The notes: a model not told the origin generated them from the sequence alone. 64,000 nucleotides of DNA from Spirochaetia bacterium (GCA_963675665.1 OY776510.1:3424001-3488000), one strand, 5' to 3'. Positions 26,642-60,763 are shown, counted from the first letter of the stretch. Numbers and translations: made by a program.

Positions 26642-28531
26642 TTATTTTTTTTTTGATTGTTCAGCCTTTTTACTGTACATCTCAGCCCATTCGATAAGAC
26701 CTTTCTTGCGGTAGATTACACTCATATTATAATAAACTCTTCGGTCGCTGATTCCGTTGTAAATGCATTTTTGAAAAACATTGAGAGCTTCTTCATCCAT
26801 ACCGTTTTTATAAAGGGTTACTCCGTAAACAAGAAGAAGGTCTACAGACGGTTTTTTGAAAGCCTCTATGGCGCTTTTCAGTAAAGGAAGAGTTTCAGAA
26901 TCTCTGCCTTCTTTTCTCATGCAGAAAAGAAGCAGTTTCAGATATTCCTCATTGAAAGGTGAATTTGAAAGCAGCTGTCGATAGAGAATCGATGCTTCCC
27001 TGTAAATTCCGGCCTTGCGGCAACAATATGCCAGCTTTTTAATGTAAAAAATTTCATTTGAGAGAGAAGCTATAATTCTATACTGGTCTGATGCAGTCCT
27101 GTAATCACCGTTTCTGACAAGCATTCCGGCGTAAAGAATCCTTCTTTCGGTATCATTTTCATAAAAAGAAAGATATTTCTTAAGTACTGGCAACAATGGT
27201 TTTCCGGCAGGTTCTGCCGATTCTATCAGTCCGTTCCAGGCATCGCTCAGACTGTTCTCAATTTTTAATGCATTTTTGAATGAACTGTAAGCGCGCAAAT
27301 AATCAGATACGGACATTTCACCATATCCTTTTGCTGTGAGCAGCCAGCCGTCTTTCTCTTTTTTTAAACGGTTTTCGACGGCGGGTTTCCAGGTATTATA
27401 ATCTTTGTTCAGCTTCCAGCTGCATAATATGCGGTAGTATTCCGCAAAATCATCGTCCGGATTCTTTATTTCGATTATATCAAGTTCGGAATCAACTCCT
27501 GAATAATCATTCTCAAGCCATCTTACTGATGCTCTGCCGTAATGCGGTTCTACGGTTTTTTTATTAATTTCTGAAGCACGGGTGAAATGATTATATGATT
27601 CTTCAAGCCTTCCGCTGTTTTTGAGACATTCGCCGGCAAGAAGATGCATGTCGTAAGTCCGTTCTTTTTTTAAAGAAGAAATTGCGTAATACAGGGCGGT
27701 GCTGTAATCTTTTTTTAGCCAGAAGGCGACGGCAAACGATTGCCCGGTATTATCCAGGGTGTTTAAAAAAGATTTTATTTCGTCCTGCTCTTTATATGTT
27801 GACAGTAATTCAAAGGCACTGTCGATATCACCGACCAGCATGTATAATTCAGCAAGAATGTTTTTTACAAGGGAATCTTCAGGTACAATACTCGCTGCAT
27901 AATATATATATTTGGCAGCTTTGACATATTCTTTTAATTCTTTATAGATTATGCCCGTATATAATTTTGTCGTAAGAGAAGTGAAACCTGAATCTTCAAG
28001 AAAAAGAAGCCCCTTTAAAGCTTTTTGGTAATTTTCATTCCTGAATTCCTTAAGAGATAAAACAAGAATGCTGTTTATATACATCGTATTGACTTTTTTG
28101 TTATTTGGTTCTTCAGCGATAGCTTTTGAAAGGTAATCTACAGCCTTTTCAGGACATCCGCAGCGCAGCATCGCATATCCAAGGTAGACAAGCGAAGGCG
28201 CAAAATCAGGTTTTAACCGCAAAGCCTCATTAAAGCAAGATGCGGCACGGTGGAATTTGCCTGTTGCTATGTAGGTTCTGCCGAGATAGAAATAACCTGC
28301 ACCGGATTTTGGAGCTTTTGTAATATAAAGCCTCAGAGAAATAATGGCGTCATCAAAATTTCCAAGCTCGTGGCAGGCACGTCCAAGGTAAAGCAGCGCT
28401 TCGGGTATATCATCCGAAAGATTTAAAACATTTCTGAGTTTTATTACGGCTGCCGCGTAATTGCGCCTGCGTCCGTCTTCGATTGCATTTTGGAATAAAT
28501 TATTAACCCTGTTTTTTGAATTTACCACCAA
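26642..28531 (-). CDS. Tetratricopeptide repeat protein (start may be GTG 28528)
   Basis: Many TPR units, e.g. ALLYLGRACHELG and GYFYLGRTYIATG. Confidence 0.85.
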   Translation of the reverse strand: MVVNSKNRVNNLFQNAIEDGRRRNYAAAVIKLRNVLNLSDDIPEALLYLGRACHELGNFDDAIISLRLYITKAPKSGAGYFYLGRTYIATGKFHRAASCFNEALRLKPDFAPSLVYLGYAMLRCGCPEKAVDYLSKAIAEEPNNKKVNTMYINSILVLSLKEFRNENYQKALKGLLFLEDSGFTSLTTKLYTGIIYKELKEYVKAAKYIYYAASIVPEDSLVKNILAELYMLVGDIDSAFELLSTYKEQDEIKSFLNTLDNTGQSFAVAFWLKKDYSTALYYAISSLKKERTYDMHLLAGECLKNSGRLEESYNHFTRASEINKKTVEPHYGRASVRWLENDYSGVDSELDIIEIKNPDDDFAEYYRILCSWKLNKDYNTWKPAVENRLKKEKDGWLLTAKGYGEMSVSDYLRAYSSFKNALKIENSLSDAWNGLIESAEPAGKPLLPVLKKYLSFYENDTERRILYAGMLVRNGDYRTASDQYRIIASLSNEIFYIKKLAYCCRKAGIYREASILYRQLLSNSPFNEEYLKLLLFCMRKEGRDSETLPLLKSAIEAFKKPSVDLLLVYGVTLYKNGMDEEALNVFQKCIYNGISDRRVYYNMSVIYRKKGLIEWAEMYSKKAEQSKKK

Positions 28532-28561
28532 ATAAGGTTAACATATAATTGATATTTATAC

Positions 28562-28590
28562 TTGTGGATTTTTATTAAAAATGATATAAA
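28562..28590 (+). promoter_or_regulatory. Sigma70-type promoter for the riboswitch leader
   Basis: TTGTGG-N17-TATAAA with extended TG; predicted start about 28597, just before P1. Confidence 0.55.
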
Positions 28591-28600
28591 TATTCAACGG

Positions 28601-28704
28601 ATTTTCTCCGAATTATTTCAGCTAAGGCATTTATCGCTATGCAGGAATAATCGATGGGTATTGATGGAAACGTTAATGCCTCCCGCACTTGGAAAGGAGA
28701 GGGA
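28601..28704 (+). ncRNA. Moco/Wco (Tuco)-type riboswitch aptamer, P3-less variant
   Basis: P1 TTTTCTCC/GGAGAGGG; P2 ATTATTTC/GGAATAAT with tetraloop receptor GCTAAG/TATGC; P4 GGTATTGATG-GAAA-CGTTAATGCC; P5 TCC..GGA; conserved end GCCTCCC...GGAAAGGAG. Confidence 0.82.
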
Positions 28705-28719
28705 TTATGGCAGAAACTT

Positions 28720-28753
28720 GCCCGCTCCTTCTTTTGGAAGCGGGCGTATTTTT
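28720..28753 (+). terminator. Riboswitch expression-platform terminator
   Basis: GCCCGCTCC-loop-GGAAGCGGGC then GTATTTTT; its CTCCTT can alternatively pair with the aptamer AAGGAG. Confidence 0.6.
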
Positions 28754-28926
28754 GCCTTTTTATAAAGGCAGAATTTAAAATATCATAGTTCGGGTCGATC
28801 GCAAAAAAGGTTTGTATATAGTTTCCACCATAATCCTTCCGTATATGAACAGCGATTGGCCCGTTTTTTCCAACAACCACTTTGTTTTTATCTTCACATT
28901 TAATGCGCTTTCTGATACATTTCGGT

Positions 28927-30354
28927 ATGGAAGACAAGAGTATATTCAGAAATATTTCACCGCTCGATCACCGATATTATTTATCAAATCGACAGATTTT
29001 CGATTCATTAGCTGACTACATCAGTGAAGAAGCAAGCATTATGTATTGCATCAAGGCGGAAGCTGCGCTGCTTAAAAGTCATATGAGCCTGTACGGCGAA
29101 AAATATGCAGAGTTTTCCAGTATTGTTGATACGCTGGCTGACTCAATAAAACCTGAAGAAGTTTATGAGGAAGAAGAAAAGACCCAGCATAATATCAGGG
29201 CCCTTGTCAATGTGATGAAGAACAAGGTGCCGGATGAACTAAAACCTTTTATTCATCTTGGAGCAACATCAGTAGATATTCTTGATACTGCATCGTCAAT
29301 GAAGTACCGGGATGCAGTCAGAAAGGTGATTCTGCCGCAGCTTATAAAACTGGAAAAGCAGCTTGCCGAAATCGCTTCAAATGAGGCCTGTACCCCGCAG
29401 GTAGGAAGAACCCACGGGCAGCATGCAGTTCCAATTACCCTCGGCTTTGCTTTGTCGGAATATGTATCCAGACTCGGTAAATCAATTGTTGAAATAGAAA
29501 GGCTCTCGAAGGAACTGAGAGGAAAACTGGCAGGCGCTGTAGGATCATACAATTCAACCAGCATGATAGTCAGCGATCCTTTTGATCTTGAAGAACGATA
29601 TCTTGATTTTCTCGGTTTGAAAGCCTCCGAACATTCAACCCAGATGGTGGAACCGGAATATCTGTTGAGACTTCTTACCGAGATAAATACCGCTTTCGGA
29701 ATAATTGCAAATCTTGCCGATGACCTGAGAAACCTGCAGCGTTCGGAGATATCGGAGCTGAGGGAAATGTTTACGGCCACCCAGGTTGGGTCATCAACAA
29801 TGCCGCAGAAAAGAAATCCGTGGAATTCCGAACATGTTAAAAGCCTGTGGAAGGCGTTCAGTCCCCGCGTGATTACATTTTTCATGGACCAGATCTCGGA
29901 ACACCAGAGGGATCTGTCAAATTCTGCATCAACCCGGTTTATTGCTGATTACCTTGCAGGATTCACTGCGGCAGTTGCCCGTATGATAAAAATTACTGCA
30001 ACACTTTATGTCGACAGGGAAAGACTTTCAGCAAATCTGAATTTCACCGGGGACCTTGTATTAGCTGAAGCTGCATACATTCTTCTGTCATGCGCAGGAG
30101 AACCGGACGCCCATGAGGTTATCCGGAAAGTAACGCTAGAGTGTGAGAAAAATAAAACTACTCTGGCTGTTGAACTGCCGAAAAAACCGGAAACATGGAA
30201 AAAAATCTCTACGCAGCTGAAGACTGTTACTGGTCAGGATGCTTCAGATTTCTTTTCAAAGCCGGAGATGTACCGGGGCAAATCAGCTGAAAAGGCTGAG
30301 GCCATATCAGCAAAATATAAGGAAACAATGAAAAAACTTGAGGAGAGCCTTTAA
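28927..30354 (+). CDS. purB: Adenylosuccinate lyase
   Basis: ISPLDHRY, HLGATSVD, GRTHGQHA, GSSTMPQKRNP signature. Confidence 0.95.
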   Translation: MEDKSIFRNISPLDHRYYLSNRQIFDSLADYISEEASIMYCIKAEAALLKSHMSLYGEKYAEFSSIVDTLADSIKPEEVYEEEEKTQHNIRALVNVMKNKVPDELKPFIHLGATSVDILDTASSMKYRDAVRKVILPQLIKLEKQLAEIASNEACTPQVGRTHGQHAVPITLGFALSEYVSRLGKSIVEIERLSKELRGKLAGAVGSYNSTSMIVSDPFDLEERYLDFLGLKASEHSTQMVEPEYLLRLLTEINTAFGIIANLADDLRNLQRSEISELREMFTATQVGSSTMPQKRNPWNSEHVKSLWKAFSPRVITFFMDQISEHQRDLSNSASTRFIADYLAGFTAAVARMIKITATLYVDRERLSANLNFTGDLVLAEAAYILLSCAGEPDAHEVIRKVTLECEKNKTTLAVELPKKPETWKKISTQLKTVTGQDASDFFSKPEMYRGKSAEKAEAISAKYKETMKKLEESL

Positions 30355-31793
30355 TGAATATAAAAGAATCACTCAGTTACGACGACGTTCTGCTAGTTCC
30401 GGGATATTCTGATGTTCTGCCGCATACCGCCGATGTCCGAACCAGGCTTGTAAAAGACATTTACCTGAATTCTCCGATTATTTCAGCGGCAATGGATACC
30501 GTAACGGAGGAAGAGCTTGCAATAGCGCTGGCGCTTGAAGGAGGAGCCGGAGTTATTCACAGGAATTTAAGCCCGAAAGAGCAGGCCTCTCAGGTGGCCT
30601 CTGTAAAGCGTTTTCTTAACTGGATAATAGAGAAACCCGTCACAGTGCTTGAAGACACGCTGATAGGCGATGTGAGACGGCTGAGAGAAGAATACGGGGT
30701 GTCAGGCTTTCCCGTAACAAATACCGAAGGAATTCTGACGGGTATAATTACCGGAAGAGACCTCAGATTTCTGGAAGACGACAACCTTCATGTAAAAGAT
30801 GTAATGACTCCGAATCCGGTTATTGCAGAAGGGGTGCCGACCCCGGAAAGCGCCAGAATAAAATTTAATAAACACAAGATAGAAAAACTGCCAGTAATAG
30901 ACAAAGACGGAAAAATAACAGGATTAATTACCGTAAAGGATATGGAAAAGCATGGAGATCACCCTGAGGCGGCAACTGATTCATCAGGAAGACTTATAGT
31001 GGGCGCAGCAATTTCCCCGCAGGATTATGACCGAAGGCTTCCGCTTCTTGTGGAGAGCAAGGTTGATTTTGTAGTGCTTGATACCGCCCATGGCGACGCA
31101 AAAAGCGTCAGCGACGCGATAAGCGATATTAAACGCAAATACAGTGTCCCGGTTGTGGGCGGAAATGCAGCTACCGCAGAGGCTACAAGACGTCTTATAG
31201 ATGCAGGCTCCGATGCGGTTAAAGTAGGCGTCGGTCCGGGGTCAATCTGTACTACAAGAATTGTAGCCGGAATCGGAGTCCCTCAGTTTTCAGCCGTTTC
31301 ATGGTGCGCGGAAGAAGCAGAAAAAGACAATATCCCGGTGATTGCCGACGGCGGCATAAAGTTTTCGGGTGATATTCCGAAAGCAATAGCTGCAGGGGCA
31401 TCGTCTATAATGGTCGGCAATCTTTTTGCAGGGTTAAAGGAAGCTCCCGGCAGCGAAATAATATTTGAAGGCAGAATCTTCAAACAGTACAGGGGAATGG
31501 GCTCGATCGGGGCAATCAAGGAAGGCAGCGGAGATCGCTACCAGATGAAGAAAGGTGATACTCCGGTACCGGAAGGAATCGAGGGGCGTGTGCCGTATAA
31601 GGGCGAGCTCAGGGCTTTTCATCATCAGCTGATAACCGGTCTGAAAAAAGGGATGACCTATTGCGGTTGTTCGAACATAGAAGAATTGCGTAAATATCAG
31701 AATTTTGTTAAGATTTCGCCGGCCGGTTTAAGAGAGAGTCATGCTCACGATATCATGATTACTCAGGAAGCGCCAAACTACTCGAAAAACTAA
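30354..31793 (+). CDS. guaB: IMP dehydrogenase
   Basis: [12 protein letters not shown] pair, [26 protein letters not shown]. Confidence 0.97.
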
Positions 31794-31803
31794 GAGGTAT
31801 TTT

Positions 31804-33027
31804 ATGAATCTTGTTGTTGTCGGAGCTCAATGGGGAGACGAAGGCAAAGGAAAAATTGTTGATTATCTTGCTGAAGAATCTGATCTTATCGTAAGATTTT
31901 CGGGCGGCGCGAATGCCGGCCATACAATCGTTGCCGGAGATGTTACTTACAAGCTTCATCTCGTTCCGTCAGGTATTATTTACGACGACAAAAAGGTTGT
32001 CCTCGGCACAGGAATGGTTATAGATCCGGAAGCTCTTTTTAACGAGCTTGCAACAATTGAGAAACAGGGAATTAACTGGGAAAACAGAATATACATTTCC
32101 GACAGGGCGCATCTTGTTCTTCCGCGATACCGCGAAGAAGACATAGAACTTGATAAAAATCGATCCAATCCAATCGGTACCACAGGACGCGGCATTGGAG
32201 TTACATATGCGCATAAGGCTCATCGCGACGGAATAAGGGTAGGCGACCTTTACAATGAAAAACTGTATGCCGGCCTATCCGGCGACGACCGTGAATATCT
32301 GGATCAGTACAAAGACAGAATGAAGGATATGGTTCTGGATCTATGTACTTTCATGGCTGAAAACAAAGGGAAACGAACGCTGTTTGAAGGAGCGCAGGGA
32401 GTGCTTCTTGATCTTGATGTCGGAACTTATCCGTATGTCTCATCCGGATATTCCCAGGCTGCCGGGGCAGCGATGGGCGGGGGCATAGGACCAAGAAATA
32501 TCGACGGCGTTCTCGGAGTTTTCAAGGCATATTCTACAAGGGTTGGAAATGGTCCGTTTCCTTCCGAGTTTCAGGACAACAGGGACGGCCAGCTTGAGAA
32601 TTATATACGGGAAACAGGCCGGGAATACGGTGTTACGACCGGAAGGCCCAGAAGATGCGGCTACCTTGATTTGCCCGCGCTTAAATATGCCTGCAGGGTA
32701 AATTCCCTGGATTCTCTTGTTCTTACGCACCTCGATGTCTATGACGAAATAAGCGAACTGAAAGCGTGTATAGCCTATGAATGCGACGGCGAACTTGTTG
32801 AAAATTTTCCAGCCGATATTTCAGTTCTTGAAAATTCGGTTCCGGTAACAAAATCTTTTAAAGGCTGGAATAAAAGCCTTAAAGATATAAGAAACTATGA
32901 AGACCTTCCGGCAGAAGCCAAAGAATATATAAAATTTATAGAAGATTACACTGAAACCCCGGTTGATATTGTTTCGATCGGATACAGACGCGAAGAAACC
33001 ATCCTTCGAAAAGATTTCTGGAAATAG
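31804..33027 (+). CDS. purA: Adenylosuccinate synthetase
   Basis: QWGDEGKGK, GANAGHT, IGTTGRGIG, EGAQG, GVTTGRPRRCG. Confidence 0.97.
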   Translation: MNLVVVGAQWGDEGKGKIVDYLAEESDLIVRFSGGANAGHTIVAGDVTYKLHLVPSGIIYDDKKVVLGTGMVIDPEALFNELATIEKQGINWENRIYISDRAHLVLPRYREEDIELDKNRSNPIGTTGRGIGVTYAHKAHRDGIRVGDLYNEKLYAGLSGDDREYLDQYKDRMKDMVLDLCTFMAENKGKRTLFEGAQGVLLDLDVGTYPYVSSGYSQAAGAAMGGGIGPRNIDGVLGVFKAYSTRVGNGPFPSEFQDNRDGQLENYIRETGREYGVTTGRPRRCGYLDLPALKYACRVNSLDSLVLTHLDVYDEISELKACIAYECDGELVENFPADISVLENSVPVTKSFKGWNKSLKDIRNYEDLPAEAKEYIKFIEDYTETPVDIVSIGYRREETILRKDFWK

Positions 33028-33049
33028 ACAGTGCAGACAGGGAGCAGAA

Positions 33050-34597
33050 ATGGATAAAATCCTCGTATTTGATTTCGGAAGCCAGACGACCCAGCTCATA
33101 GCAAGAAGAATTCGTGATTTTGGTGTATATACCGACATCGTTACCGCAGAAACCGAATGTACTGAAGAGCTTCTAAAGGACGTCAAGGGGATTATTCTTT
33201 CAGGTTCGCCGTATTCGGTGTATGAGAAAGGCGCTCCGACGCCTCATCATTCCATATACGAAACAGGACTGCCTGCTTTAGGTATATGTTACGGTTTTCA
33301 GAGAATGACAGCGGATTTCGGCGGTGAGGTCAAGGCCCTTGAAAAAACAGAATACGGGCGTTCAAATATAAATTACACGATGGAGCTGCCGCTTTTTAAA
33401 GGAATTCCTGATGGTTTTACATCTTGGATGAGTCACGGCGACAGTATAAACAGGCTGGGCAACGGATTCTCCCTTGCTGCAGAATCACAGCATCATATTG
33501 CCTGCGCATACAATTCAGAGAAAAATCTGTACGGTATACAGTTTCATCCCGAAGTAACGCATTGTGAGCACGGAAATGACATACTCAAAAATTTTGCAAT
33601 TGAAATTTGCGGGGCTGAAACAGGCTGGGATATGGCTGCCTATCTGAAACAGGAAAGCGAAGCTGTAAGAAAACAGGCCGACGGTCGTGATGTCCTTCTG
33701 CTTATTTCGGGCGGGGTTGATTCCACTGTTGTCGGCGGACTTCTTCTTAAATCGATTGAGCCTTCCAGGGTGCATCTAATGTACATAGACACCGGCCTTA
33801 TGCGCAAAAACGAATCTATAGAAGTTGAGACGGGTTTAAAAAAACTCGGAGCAGAGAATCTCTATTTAATTGATGCCTCGGAACGTTTTCTTGCCGCACT
33901 GAAGGGCATTAGCGAACCGGAAAAAAAGCGGGAAATAATAGGTGACCTTTTTATAAAAGTACAGGAAGACGAGATAAAAAAACGTCTCAAAGGCGATTAC
34001 ATGCTTGCCCAGGGCACGTTGTATACCGATCTTATCGAATCAGGCAAGGGCGTAGGGAAAAAAGCGCAGGTTATAAAATCACACCACAACGTGCGTTCGC
34101 CGCTTGTAGAGGCAAAACGAGATAAAGGATTGATTATTGAACCTTTGGGAAAACTTTACAAAGATGAAGTCCGCGAACTAGGACGCAGAATAGGGATAAG
34201 CGATGAAATTATCAGGCGCCACCCGTTCCCGGGGCCGGGGCTTGCCGTCCGGATTCTCGGAGACATAACCGATGAAAAATGCGAAATACTCCGTGAAGCA
34301 GACTGGATTTTCATCAACGAGCTAAAATCCCGCGGTCTTTACGACAAAATCTGGCAGGCGTTCTGTGTTCTGCTTCCGATACGATCAGTCGGTGTCGCCG
34401 GTGATCTGCGGGAATACGGATATGTTCTTGCCCTAAGGGCAATTACATCAAGTGACGGAATGACAGCCGATGTTTATCCGTTTGAGACCAGGGACATACT
34501 CGAGATATCATCGCTGATAACGAATTCTGTCCGCGGAATCGGAAGGGTTGTATATGACGTTTCTTCAAAACCGCCGGCAACCATCGAATGGGAGTAA
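33050..34597 (+). CDS. guaA: GMP synthase (glutamine-hydrolysing)
   Basis: DFGSQ, GICYG, QFHPEV, SGGVDS, KSHHNV, HPFPGPGL, KPPATIEWE; GGAG SD before ATG 33050. Confidence 0.97.
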   Translation: MDKILVFDFGSQTTQLIARRIRDFGVYTDIVTAETECTEELLKDVKGIILSGSPYSVYEKGAPTPHHSIYETGLPALGICYGFQRMTADFGGEVKALEKTEYGRSNINYTMELPLFKGIPDGFTSWMSHGDSINRLGNGFSLAAESQHHIACAYNSEKNLYGIQFHPEVTHCEHGNDILKNFAIEICGAETGWDMAAYLKQESEAVRKQADGRDVLLLISGGVDSTVVGGLLLKSIEPSRVHLMYIDTGLMRKNESIEVETGLKKLGAENLYLIDASERFLAALKGISEPEKKREIIGDLFIKVQEDEIKKRLKGDYMLAQGTLYTDLIESGKGVGKKAQVIKSHHNVRSPLVEAKRDKGLIIEPLGKLYKDEVRELGRRIGISDEIIRRHPFPGPGLAVRILGDITDEKCEILREADWIFINELKSRGLYDKIWQAFCVLLPIRSVGVAGDLREYGYVLALRAITSSDGMTADVYPFETRDILEISSLITNSVRGIGRVVYDVSSKPPATIEWE

Positions 34598-60316: not shown

Positions 60317-60405
60317 TGCTATCCTCCGCTTATTATTATCCTATCATATTTTTTCGTGATATTTCAAAGGAATGATAAAAAAACATAAAACATGAAATAT
60401 TGAGC

Positions 60406-60763
60406 TGGAGGTGGGGGGAATCGAACCCCCGTCCTGACGGGCCCAACACAGGCGTCTACAAGCTTAGTTTTTTCTTGGTTTTTCGGAATCAGAACGGCGA
60501 AAAAACCTGCCAACTGACTCTATATTCTGAAAAAATGTCCCTGGTACTGCTCAGACTCAGCATCAGGTAAAGCACTGGTTTCTTTCAGGAGCAGCCGGTC
60601 TTCAGTGCAGCATACCGACGTCCCGCGCTGCATAATTAAGCAGCTAAAGCGTAATCAGCTTCGAAATTATCTTCGGCAATTACATTTAGGTCCAGTTTAA
60701 AGAGTTAGGGCTCTGCCTGCAGCCTGTACCGAAACATCCGCCAGTCGAAACCAGTGCACCCCC
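60406..60763 (-). ncRNA. ssrA: tmRNA; tag reading frame AEDNFEADYALAA*
   Basis: 5' GGGGGTGCACTGGTTTCGAC; 3' T-arm GGTTCGATTCC and CACCTCCA with G3:U; tag ORF 60677-60636; CCA not encoded; smpB nearby. Confidence 0.95.

Follow-up and report, generated by a model that had tools for sequence, protein, structure and literature searches.

A Moco/Wco-class riboswitch followed by two predicted terminators upstream of the purB-guaB-purA-guaA operon in one genus of marine Spirochaetales

Riboswitches of the class associated with the molybdenum and tungsten cofactors (Moco and Wco) are, to our knowledge, known only before genes for metal uptake, cofactor synthesis and cofactor-dependent enzymes. What, then, does such an element control when the genes behind it are of a different kind? 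The question is raised by a 64,000-nucleotide (nt) stretch of DNA from a Spirochaetia bacterium (GCA_963675665.1 OY776510.1:3424001-3488000), referred to here as the window, in which a canonical aptamer of this class, kept by selection, stands before purB-guaB-purA-guaA, the operon for the adenosine and guanosine monophosphate (AMP/GMP) branches of purine synthesis. Two targets are in play: a small RNA gated by the riboswitch, which is tentatively preferred, and the purine operon itself, which is a possible target. The argument is set out below, and the coordinates of the features are collected in Table 1.

The initial annotation of the window, made by a model from the sequence alone, had described a complete Moco/Wco-type aptamer, and this description is borne out by the Rfam covariance model. 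A cmscan of the whole window aligned RF01055 over its full length (model positions 1-135) to 28594-28715 of the plus strand with 78.4 bits (E 2.8e-17), the gathering score of the family being 36 bits. The model positions of stem P3 were deleted in the alignment, which places the element in the P3-lacking subclass, and no other Rfam family matched within 28500-28960 with E below 0.89. All consensus elements of the core are present (CUCCGA, CUAAG/UAUG, GGAAAC, GCCUCCCG and UUGGAAAGGAG), and the score is the second best among the 11 RF01055 copies of the genome.

Comparison with related sequences was based on five cassettes, namely those of the source genome (G000), three further genomes (G001, G003 and G004) and a metagenome contig (L092). 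The orthologous aptamers scored 72.8, 70.9 and 67.9 bits against RF01055. The GAAA loop (GGAAAC) and its CUAAG/UAUG receptor, whose presence the initial annotation had also noted, are identical in all five, and the pair flanking the receptor differs (UA in two, GC in one, UG in one and another combination in one). Both sides of a pair had changed at 7 of 11 pairs in P2 and 2 of 11 in P4, with P1 invariant. For the structure as a whole, the covariation score was 0.207 as compared with 0.108 in shuffled alignments, none of 500 shuffles scoring as high, and sliding the partners against one another lowered aptamer pairing from 97% to 41–49%. On this comparative evidence the purB-linked element is a functional P3-less Moco/Wco-class riboswitch, for which binding of the cofactor itself is predicted.

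A candidate promoter, P_up, precedes the aptamer. It is of the extended -10 kind (TGaTATAAA), and its geometry of -35 element, 17-nt spacer, TGn and -10 element is kept in all five aligned orthologues. P_up was read directly from the sequence; the consensus promoter scan gave instead the neighbouring TTTACC-17-TATAAT at 28521-28549. Transcription from P_up is predicted to begin at about 28596-28597, which would put the invariant ACGGA at the 5′ end of the RNA. This short motif is complementary both to UCCG in the 5′ strand of P1 and to UCCGU at 28838-28842, on the 3′ edge of the loop of a second hairpin discussed below. The RNAalifold consensus selects the distal partner, and minimum-energy folds of single sequences select the one in P1.

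Immediately after the aptamer and a short linker stands a first terminator, T1, which folds with -17.4 kcal/mol in the source genome and with -13.9 to -17.4 kcal/mol across the five orthologues. An alternative pairing is available to the 3′ strand of P1: AAAGGAGAGGG is predicted in all five sequences to pair with the pyrimidine-rich 5′ arm and loop of T1, with energies of -15.1 to -17.9 kcal/mol, and the partner in T1 varies by species (CUCCUUCUUUU, CUCCCUUUU, CCUCUUC or CUCUCUCUUUU). An intrinsic terminator right after the aptamer and a predicted competing pairing of the P1 3′ strand together make up what is predicted to be a classical transcription-terminating OFF design. Among the 11 copies in the genome, the purB-linked one alone is followed directly by a strong GC-rich terminator, one other being followed by a weak AU-rich hairpin. 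Both the promoter ahead of the aptamer and the ligand-OFF arrangement of T1 against P1 had been proposed in the initial annotation, and both proposals hold across the orthologues.

The linker between P1 and T1 is almost invariant. Its sole change is an A to G in G003, which keeps a G-U pair with the complementary segment described below. The linker contains an AUG at 28707, 7 nt past the AAGGAG of P1, and a leader peptide starting there was considered and rejected: the frame is open across T1 in all five sequences, but the encoded peptides differ (23–53 codons) and the other two frames are about equally open. An invertible DNA switch, suggested by the complementary arms that flank T1, was likewise rejected, as T1 has the same orientation in all five assemblies and no strand-changing joints were reported, although rare variants would escape such a comparison. 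The spacer from T1 to the next hairpin varies in length and sequence (32% identity). As a separate observation, the source genome alone carries an extra AU-rich hairpin, GCCUUU-UUAU-AAAGGC, at 28754-28769, directly after the U-run of T1.

The second hairpin, T2, also resembles an intrinsic terminator. Hairpin and U-run are present in all five sequences, with energies of -16.3 to -24.3 kcal/mol and z-scores of -3.9 to -5.4. The outer stem (stem B; 10–12 bp) has four different arm sequences, every one of which is paired, and the inner stem (B2) comprises 8–10 bp. If pairs of stem B are counted in fixed alignment columns, only 64% are paired, since bulges shift the register. The loop of T2 is better preserved than its stems: all 24 loop columns are invariant, as opposed to 43–60% pairwise identity in arms that merely pair. 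The invariant loop and its edges, referred to here as the box, occur as a single copy in each genome that carries them. Box positions 28820-28836 are complementary to linker positions 28702-28718, and the loop and linker could form a long-range helix that would compete with T2. In folds of the full-length RNA, the T2 state is the minimum-energy state in four of the five sequences, and the two states lie within 1.2 kcal/mol of one another in three of the five. Whether P1 was forced or not, the energy model did not separate the choice between loop-linker helix and T2 by ligand state. Base pairing alone would not demand that loop and linker be so fixed in sequence, and the alignment suggests a further constraint or partner. 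A conserved small open reading frame (ORF) encoded opposite the box, on the minus strand, was also examined and rejected, as the frames stop after 5–18 codons and are not conserved.

Downstream of T2 lies a promoter of a quite separate history. The initial annotation had cautioned that purB seems to have a promoter of its own, and that caution is strengthened here. The proximal purB promoter (TTCACA, TGaTACATT) was recovered in the consensus promoter scan, and the same layout of -35 element, 17 nt, TGnTAnnnT, exactly 5 nt and ATG is found in all 10 genomes of the family with sequence upstream of purB, including five genomes from outside the genus that have no cassette. No Shine-Dalgarno sequence precedes purB, whereas guaB (GAGGAG), purA (AGAGG) and guaA (GGGAG) each have one. 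In all 10 family genomes the -10 element thus stands within the 5–7 nt of the start codon that are characteristic of leaderless mRNAs, and a purine-rich stretch is absent. From this layout we infer that the purB mRNA is leaderless, with a predicted start site, and is made from an ancestral, family-wide promoter. The U-run of T2 ends 3 nt from the purB -35 element in G003 and G001 and 23 nt from it in the source genome; judged by spacing, the arrangement in G003 and G001 is a typical junction between the end of one transcription unit and the start of the next.

How widely the cassette is distributed, and whether it is maintained, was addressed with genomes of the genus, the family and the class. 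The cassette lies upstream of purB in four of the five genus genomes in which the region upstream of purB is assembled, plus the metagenome contig; in a sixth genus genome (G002) the contig ends inside purB, and the upstream region is not covered. The distance from the RF01055 match to purB is 170–175 nt in G003, G001 and G004 and about 210 nt in the source genome. Homologues of purB occur in all 11 family genomes, which constitute the whole order in the set. In contrast to the genus, the purB loci of five genomes from four other genera of the family gave no RF01055 match with E up to 0.1, and in the sister genus no more than about 75 nt separate the purB ATG from the start of the neighbouring gene with tetratricopeptide (TPR) repeats. 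Among 151 genomes of the class, 54 have RF01055 and 95 have purB (E up to 1e-80), and the two are adjacent in G000, G003 and G004 only, as judged by comparing coordinates by eye; G001 is counted in addition to this sample. In G039 the two occur on one contig, 45 kb apart. No close paralogue of aptamer plus linker was found in the 11 family genomes, and no linker-like site in the five genomes without the cassette. A metagenome scan with a 17-mer from the box returned 72 loci, one of which (L092) was a true cassette; at the remaining 71 the extended box is missing, and several of them, inspected by eye, resemble unrelated gene starts on the opposite strand. Contigs of other public runs show the same pattern of conservation, with aptamer-plus-linker and box conserved and the middle divergent. 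Elsewhere in the class sample, two RF01055 matches stand head to tail, 5 nt apart (G031:C195:8-160 and 165-307), and may constitute a tandem Moco riboswitch.

The genus genome without the cassette (G005) is informative in its own right, as a clean deletion that serves as a natural control. Missing from it is everything between a point just after the predicted RNA start (..GATA|CGGA..) and the 3′ edge of the box (..UCCGUA|UAUAAAU..); retained are a P_up-like sequence, the proximal purB promoter and, in its G003 version, the stem B 3′ arm. A nucleotide tree of purB joins G005 to G003 and G001, within the genus that carries the cassette (support 80/95). This is a tree of a single gene with moderate support (11 rows, one of them partial, none dropped). 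Because the tree nests G005 among carriers, its lack of the cassette is most simply read as a secondary loss, in which the cassette behaved as a unit. Over the cassette as a whole (~245 nt, 28597-28842), flanking spacers show 30–38% identity as against the invariant aptamer core, linker and box. Compensatory changes in T1, in T2 and in the stems of the aptamer indicate, on these alignments, that the cassette is under selection in one genus of marine Spirochaetales.

Taken together, these features suggest, tentatively, that the switch serves mainly to set where the RNA ends, at T1 (~160 nt) or at T2 (~275 nt), and so gates a small RNA from which purB is largely insulated. With cofactor bound, P1 would hold GGAGAG, T1 would form, and the RNA would stop near 28753. 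With cofactor absent, AAAGGAGAGGG would pair with the 5′ arm of T1, and polymerase would continue until mostly halted at T2, near 28869. The riboswitch would in this manner gate a non-coding extension that displays a C-rich loop of 21–24 nt, with the loop as the putative effector and the linker as a segment that could mask it. Most transcription of the operon would start at its own leaderless-type promoter, with transcripts from upstream contributing leak-through only. This reading is favoured because the conserved leaderless-type promoter lies behind two terminators that are conserved as well, because the cassette was inserted upstream of an ancestral purB promoter, and because loop and linker are frozen far beyond the needs of pairing. 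A gated non-coding RNA would be expected to have no regulated ORF behind the switch, a second 3′ end downstream and a conserved RNA module in its extension; the leader ORF is not conserved and T2 has an invariant loop in all five sequences, but purB does follow on the same strand.

Several points weigh against a gated small RNA. Nearly all known riboswitches regulate, in cis, the gene that follows. The loop-linker helix is without covariation support because it never varies, 19 of its 20 pairs being invariant and the other showing the single A-to-G change that gives G-U. Folds of the nascent RNA up to 28850 prefer the loop-linker pairing in all five sequences, and by this model such early pairing may stop T2 from forming in time and lead to read-through. 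Mismatch and duplex scans of the genome found no conserved site complementary to the loop, the best sites lying inside coding regions; one such site, which matches perfectly over 15 nt within an mfd-like gene, is absent from G001, G003 and G004. A low-depth contig from an RNA library (2.4x) spans 28880-29095 and thus begins 47 nt 5′ of the purB ATG, which fits strictly leaderless transcripts poorly, although the contig could derive from carried-over DNA. The same run leaves 28702-28835 uncovered, and little weight attaches to either observation. Finally, the comparison comprises five sequences only, and those of G004 and L092 are closely related.

A more elaborate version of the small-RNA reading, and an unlikely one, has a single cofactor aptamer drive two terminators of opposite polarity, yielding a short RNA when Mo/W cofactor is plentiful and a long, trans-acting RNA with a C-rich loop when it is scarce. 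Bound cofactor would close P1 and trigger T1. With the aptamer free, T1 would be bypassed, alternative pairings would tie up ACGGA and the linker, and T2 would fold and terminate; on return of the cofactor, the linker would mask the loop again. Were this true, the product would be the first cofactor-starvation small RNA of the Moco riboswitch class, and the position of T2 against the purB promoter may in addition couple cofactor status to AMP/GMP synthesis.

The alternative that survives best is a cis attenuator of the purine operon, which is somewhat less than probable but a real contender. Here, transcripts begun at P_up under cofactor scarcity would pass both T1 and T2 into purB-guaB-purA-guaA: the linker would engage the T2 loop while the 3′ arm of that hairpin has yet to be transcribed, and a cofactor-repressed input would be added to a constitutive proximal promoter. 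A physiological link might lie in the demand of MoaA and MobA for guanosine triphosphate (GTP), or in guaB as a cofactor-independent route to xanthosine monophosphate when enzymes of the xanthine dehydrogenase type are without cofactor; feedback of the cofactor on GTP supply had been among the proposals of the initial annotation. In favour of the attenuator, riboswitches by default exert their control in cis, purB-guaB-purA-guaA comes next on the same strand, about 175 nt beyond T1, and five sequences preserve the association with purB. The preference of all five nascent folds for the loop-linker helix before the T2 3′ arm would give the complementarity a role as antiterminator, and guaB, purA and guaA, each with a Shine-Dalgarno sequence, could be translated from a long transcript. 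The genome also encodes moaA and four MoCoBD_1 genes, and an aldehyde dehydrogenase that is likely a cofactor-independent substitute already stands behind another Moco riboswitch. Set against this are a conserved U-run and a covarying stem in T2 that would make little sense were T2 bypassed every time, a purB without Shine-Dalgarno sequence whose ancestral promoter ends 5 nt before the ATG, the loss of the cassette in G005, the restriction of the association to a single genus (G001 and three of the 151 class genomes), a moaA gene that itself has no riboswitch, and an invariance of loop and linker that pairing alone does not explain. Moreover, cofactor synthesis takes a trivial share of cellular GTP. 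Because two terminators and purB's own promoter intervene, direct control of the purine operon by the riboswitch is doubtful. Control of purB by read-through is possible, and it is not the simplest reading, because T2, the family-wide promoter and a start codon without Shine-Dalgarno sequence all lie between T1 and purB.

Coupling of the two promoters without a shared transcript is improbable. Polymerases released at T2, 3–23 nt from the purB -35 element, would interfere there or re-initiate, and the riboswitch would in this way tune the firing of the leaderless purB promoter. T2 does abut that promoter in all five sequences, and the proposal fits the coexistence of a conserved terminator with a conserved leaderless-type promoter, but it is purely inferential and leaves the invariant loop unexplained.

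The remaining two alternatives had been raised in the initial annotation, and both fare badly. A neutral relic, whether landed by chance or left by loss of a Mo/W gene, and with no present function, is very improbable. The absence of any Mo/W gene downstream, the loss of the cassette in one congener and its confinement to one genus would suit a relic; however, the core, linker and box are invariant beside spacers at 30–38% identity, the stems compensate, and relatives without the cassette, when their downstream genes were compared, have no gene at the site. Since the sister genus has only ~75 nt between the TPR gene and purB, it appears that no Mo/W gene was lost there. Just as improbable is the same fold with another ligand, such as a purine nucleotide or pterin intermediate matching the operon: the unusual gene context alone speaks for it, and the tungsten-cofactor link of P3-less forms is, in the available text of Regulski et al. 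2008 (PMC2408646), drawn from gene associations and not from biochemical binding, but every consensus position of the core agrees with the family, only one of the 11 RF01055 copies in the genome scores higher, P3-length copies elsewhere in that genome stand before aldehyde:ferredoxin oxidoreductase and a TupA-like transporter, and no sign of a variant form was seen.

Table 1. Positions of the cassette, its neighbours and the purine operon, in window coordinates.
Feature	Position	Strand	Details
TPR-repeat gene, divergent	26642..28531	-	conserved left neighbour of purB across the family
Promoter P_up (candidate)	28562..28590	+	-35 TTGTGG 28562-28567; 17-nt spacer; TG 28582-28583; -10 TATAAA 28585-28590
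Moco/Wco-class aptamer (RF01055), without P3	28594..28715	+	P1 = 28604-28609 with 28696-28701
ACGGA, predicted RNA 5′ end	28597..28601	+	invariant in 5/5
Linker GGGAUUAUGGCAGAAACU	28701..28718	+	invariant in 16/17 aligned columns (28702-28718)
23-codon open frame from linker AUG	28707..28778	+	probably no gene
Terminator T1 (predicted)	28720..28753	+	stem 28720-28728 / 28736-28745; U-run 28749-28753
Terminator-like hairpin T2	28791..28869	+	stem B 28791-28802 / 28852-28863; stem B2 28810-28819 / 28841-28850; U-run 28864-28869
Box UAUAUAGUUUCCACCAUAAUCCUUCCGUAUA, T2 apical loop and edges	28815..28845	+	31 nt, invariant
Proximal purB promoter (predicted)	28893..28929	+	-35 TTCACA 28893-28898; 17 nt; TG 28913-28914; -10 TACATT 28916-28921; 5 nt; ATG 28927
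purB, adenylosuccinate lyase, divergent clade	28927..30354	+	TIGR00928 249 bits (cut-off 326); Pfam Lyase_1 and ASL_C passed
guaB, inosine monophosphate (IMP) dehydrogenase	30354..31793	+	TIGR01302 541.8 bits (cut-off 481.5)
purA, adenylosuccinate synthase	31804..33027	+	NF002223 485.1 bits (cut-off 402)
guaA, GMP synthase	33050..34597	+	NF000848 635.8 bits (cut-off 400); start = ATG after GGGAG

The identity of the operon agrees with the initial annotation, in that the next same-strand genes are purB-guaB-purA-guaA and not Mo/W genes; guaB, purA and guaA pass their family cut-offs, and purB is recognized through Pfam. The purB-linked copy accordingly lacks the usual RF01055 context of genes for Mo/W transport, cofactor synthesis or cofactor-dependent enzymes. 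The purB ORF is the only candidate for adenylosuccinate lyase in the genome (96% complete). It scores below the NCBIfam cut-off, yet proteins with 44–88% identity to it occur in 95 of the 151 class genomes, and by these comparisons the gene looks like a member of a divergent PurB clade.

The source genome (5.15 Mb, one contig) holds 11 RF01055 matches, six of them without P3 as judged by match length. The other ten precede FecCD/Peripla_BP_2-type ABC transporters, TupA/ModA-like transporters with TOBE ATPases, ferredoxin plus aldehyde:ferredoxin oxidoreductase, an aldehyde dehydrogenase of the nicotinamide adenine dinucleotide (NAD) type, and radical SAM genes. Copies of P3 length elsewhere in the genome stand before aldehyde:ferredoxin oxidoreductase (tungsten type) and the TupA-like ABC transporter. 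The gene moaA (100593-101573 of the genome, 370 bits) has no RF01055 match beside it, and the four MoCoBD_1 genes belong to the xanthine dehydrogenase family. Five copies precede FecCD/Peripla_BP_2-type ABC transporters, which are of the siderophore/B12 uptake type, and at two of these five sites large radical SAM genes are present as well. The gene content departs from the usual ModABC/TupABC regulon and hints at uptake of a chelated metal or pterin. At another locus (L042; G000:C1:2460130-2461671), a P3-containing Moco riboswitch abuts the start of the NAD-type aldehyde dehydrogenase (PF00171). This enzyme probably replaces, without need of the cofactor, the tungsten aldehyde:ferredoxin oxidoreductase, whose gene follows a further copy (L039). 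The covariance-model scan of the window gave two matches above threshold, RF01055 and a tmRNA gene at 60403-60763 on the minus strand (148 bits).

How does the purB cassette compare with known systems? For the Moco RNA motif, the available text of Regulski et al. 2008 (PMC2408646) describes both platforms that sequester the ribosome-binding site and platforms of the terminator type, and notes that an organism may have several copies. As far as the motif is described there, the purB cassette shares with it a full-length match, P1, P2 with the tetraloop receptor, P4 with the GAAA loop, and AAAGGAG in the 3′ strand of P1. It differs in having a purine operon downstream, a second terminator with an invariant loop, and a next gene with its own promoter. 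The P3-lacking (“Tuco”) subclass is linked, in the same text (PMC2408646), “almost exclusively” to molybdopterin synthesis or tungsten-cofactor enzymes; the purB-linked copy likewise lacks P3, but its downstream gene differs. Some riboswitches act in antisense, and 24 such cases are given for MOCO as compared with 834 sense cases in the available text of PMC9943018. The purB cassette resembles such cases in that its target is perhaps not simply the next same-strand gene, and yet it is not an antisense arrangement, because no opposite-strand gene occurs downstream until 34602. No report of a Moco-class riboswitch upstream of purB/guaB, or of a T2-like loop complementary to a linker, was found in the literature searched; unusual gene contexts may be listed in two supplements outside that search, S3 Table of PMC9943018 and Fig. 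S4 of PMC2408646.

An expression platform of two tandem terminators, the second with a loop complementary to the linker, thus appears undescribed. If the cis attenuator were correct, cofactor status would be linked to purine nucleotide synthesis, and if the small-RNA reading were correct, the class would include a riboswitch-gated small RNA; either would be new for this riboswitch class. Riboswitch-controlled non-coding RNAs are reportedly known for other ligands, namely EutX and Rli55 (B12 riboswitch) and SreA (S-adenosylmethionine riboswitch), in which the ligand is said to choose between a short and a long RNA, the long form having an extra functional hairpin. The purB cassette is unlike these in its ligand class and in the 3′ end of its long form, which would be set by a second intrinsic terminator with a loop complementary to the upstream linker. 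If it gates a small RNA, it would share with them a riboswitch and terminator that no regulated ORF follows directly, and its nearest functional analogy would be with EutX and Rli55.

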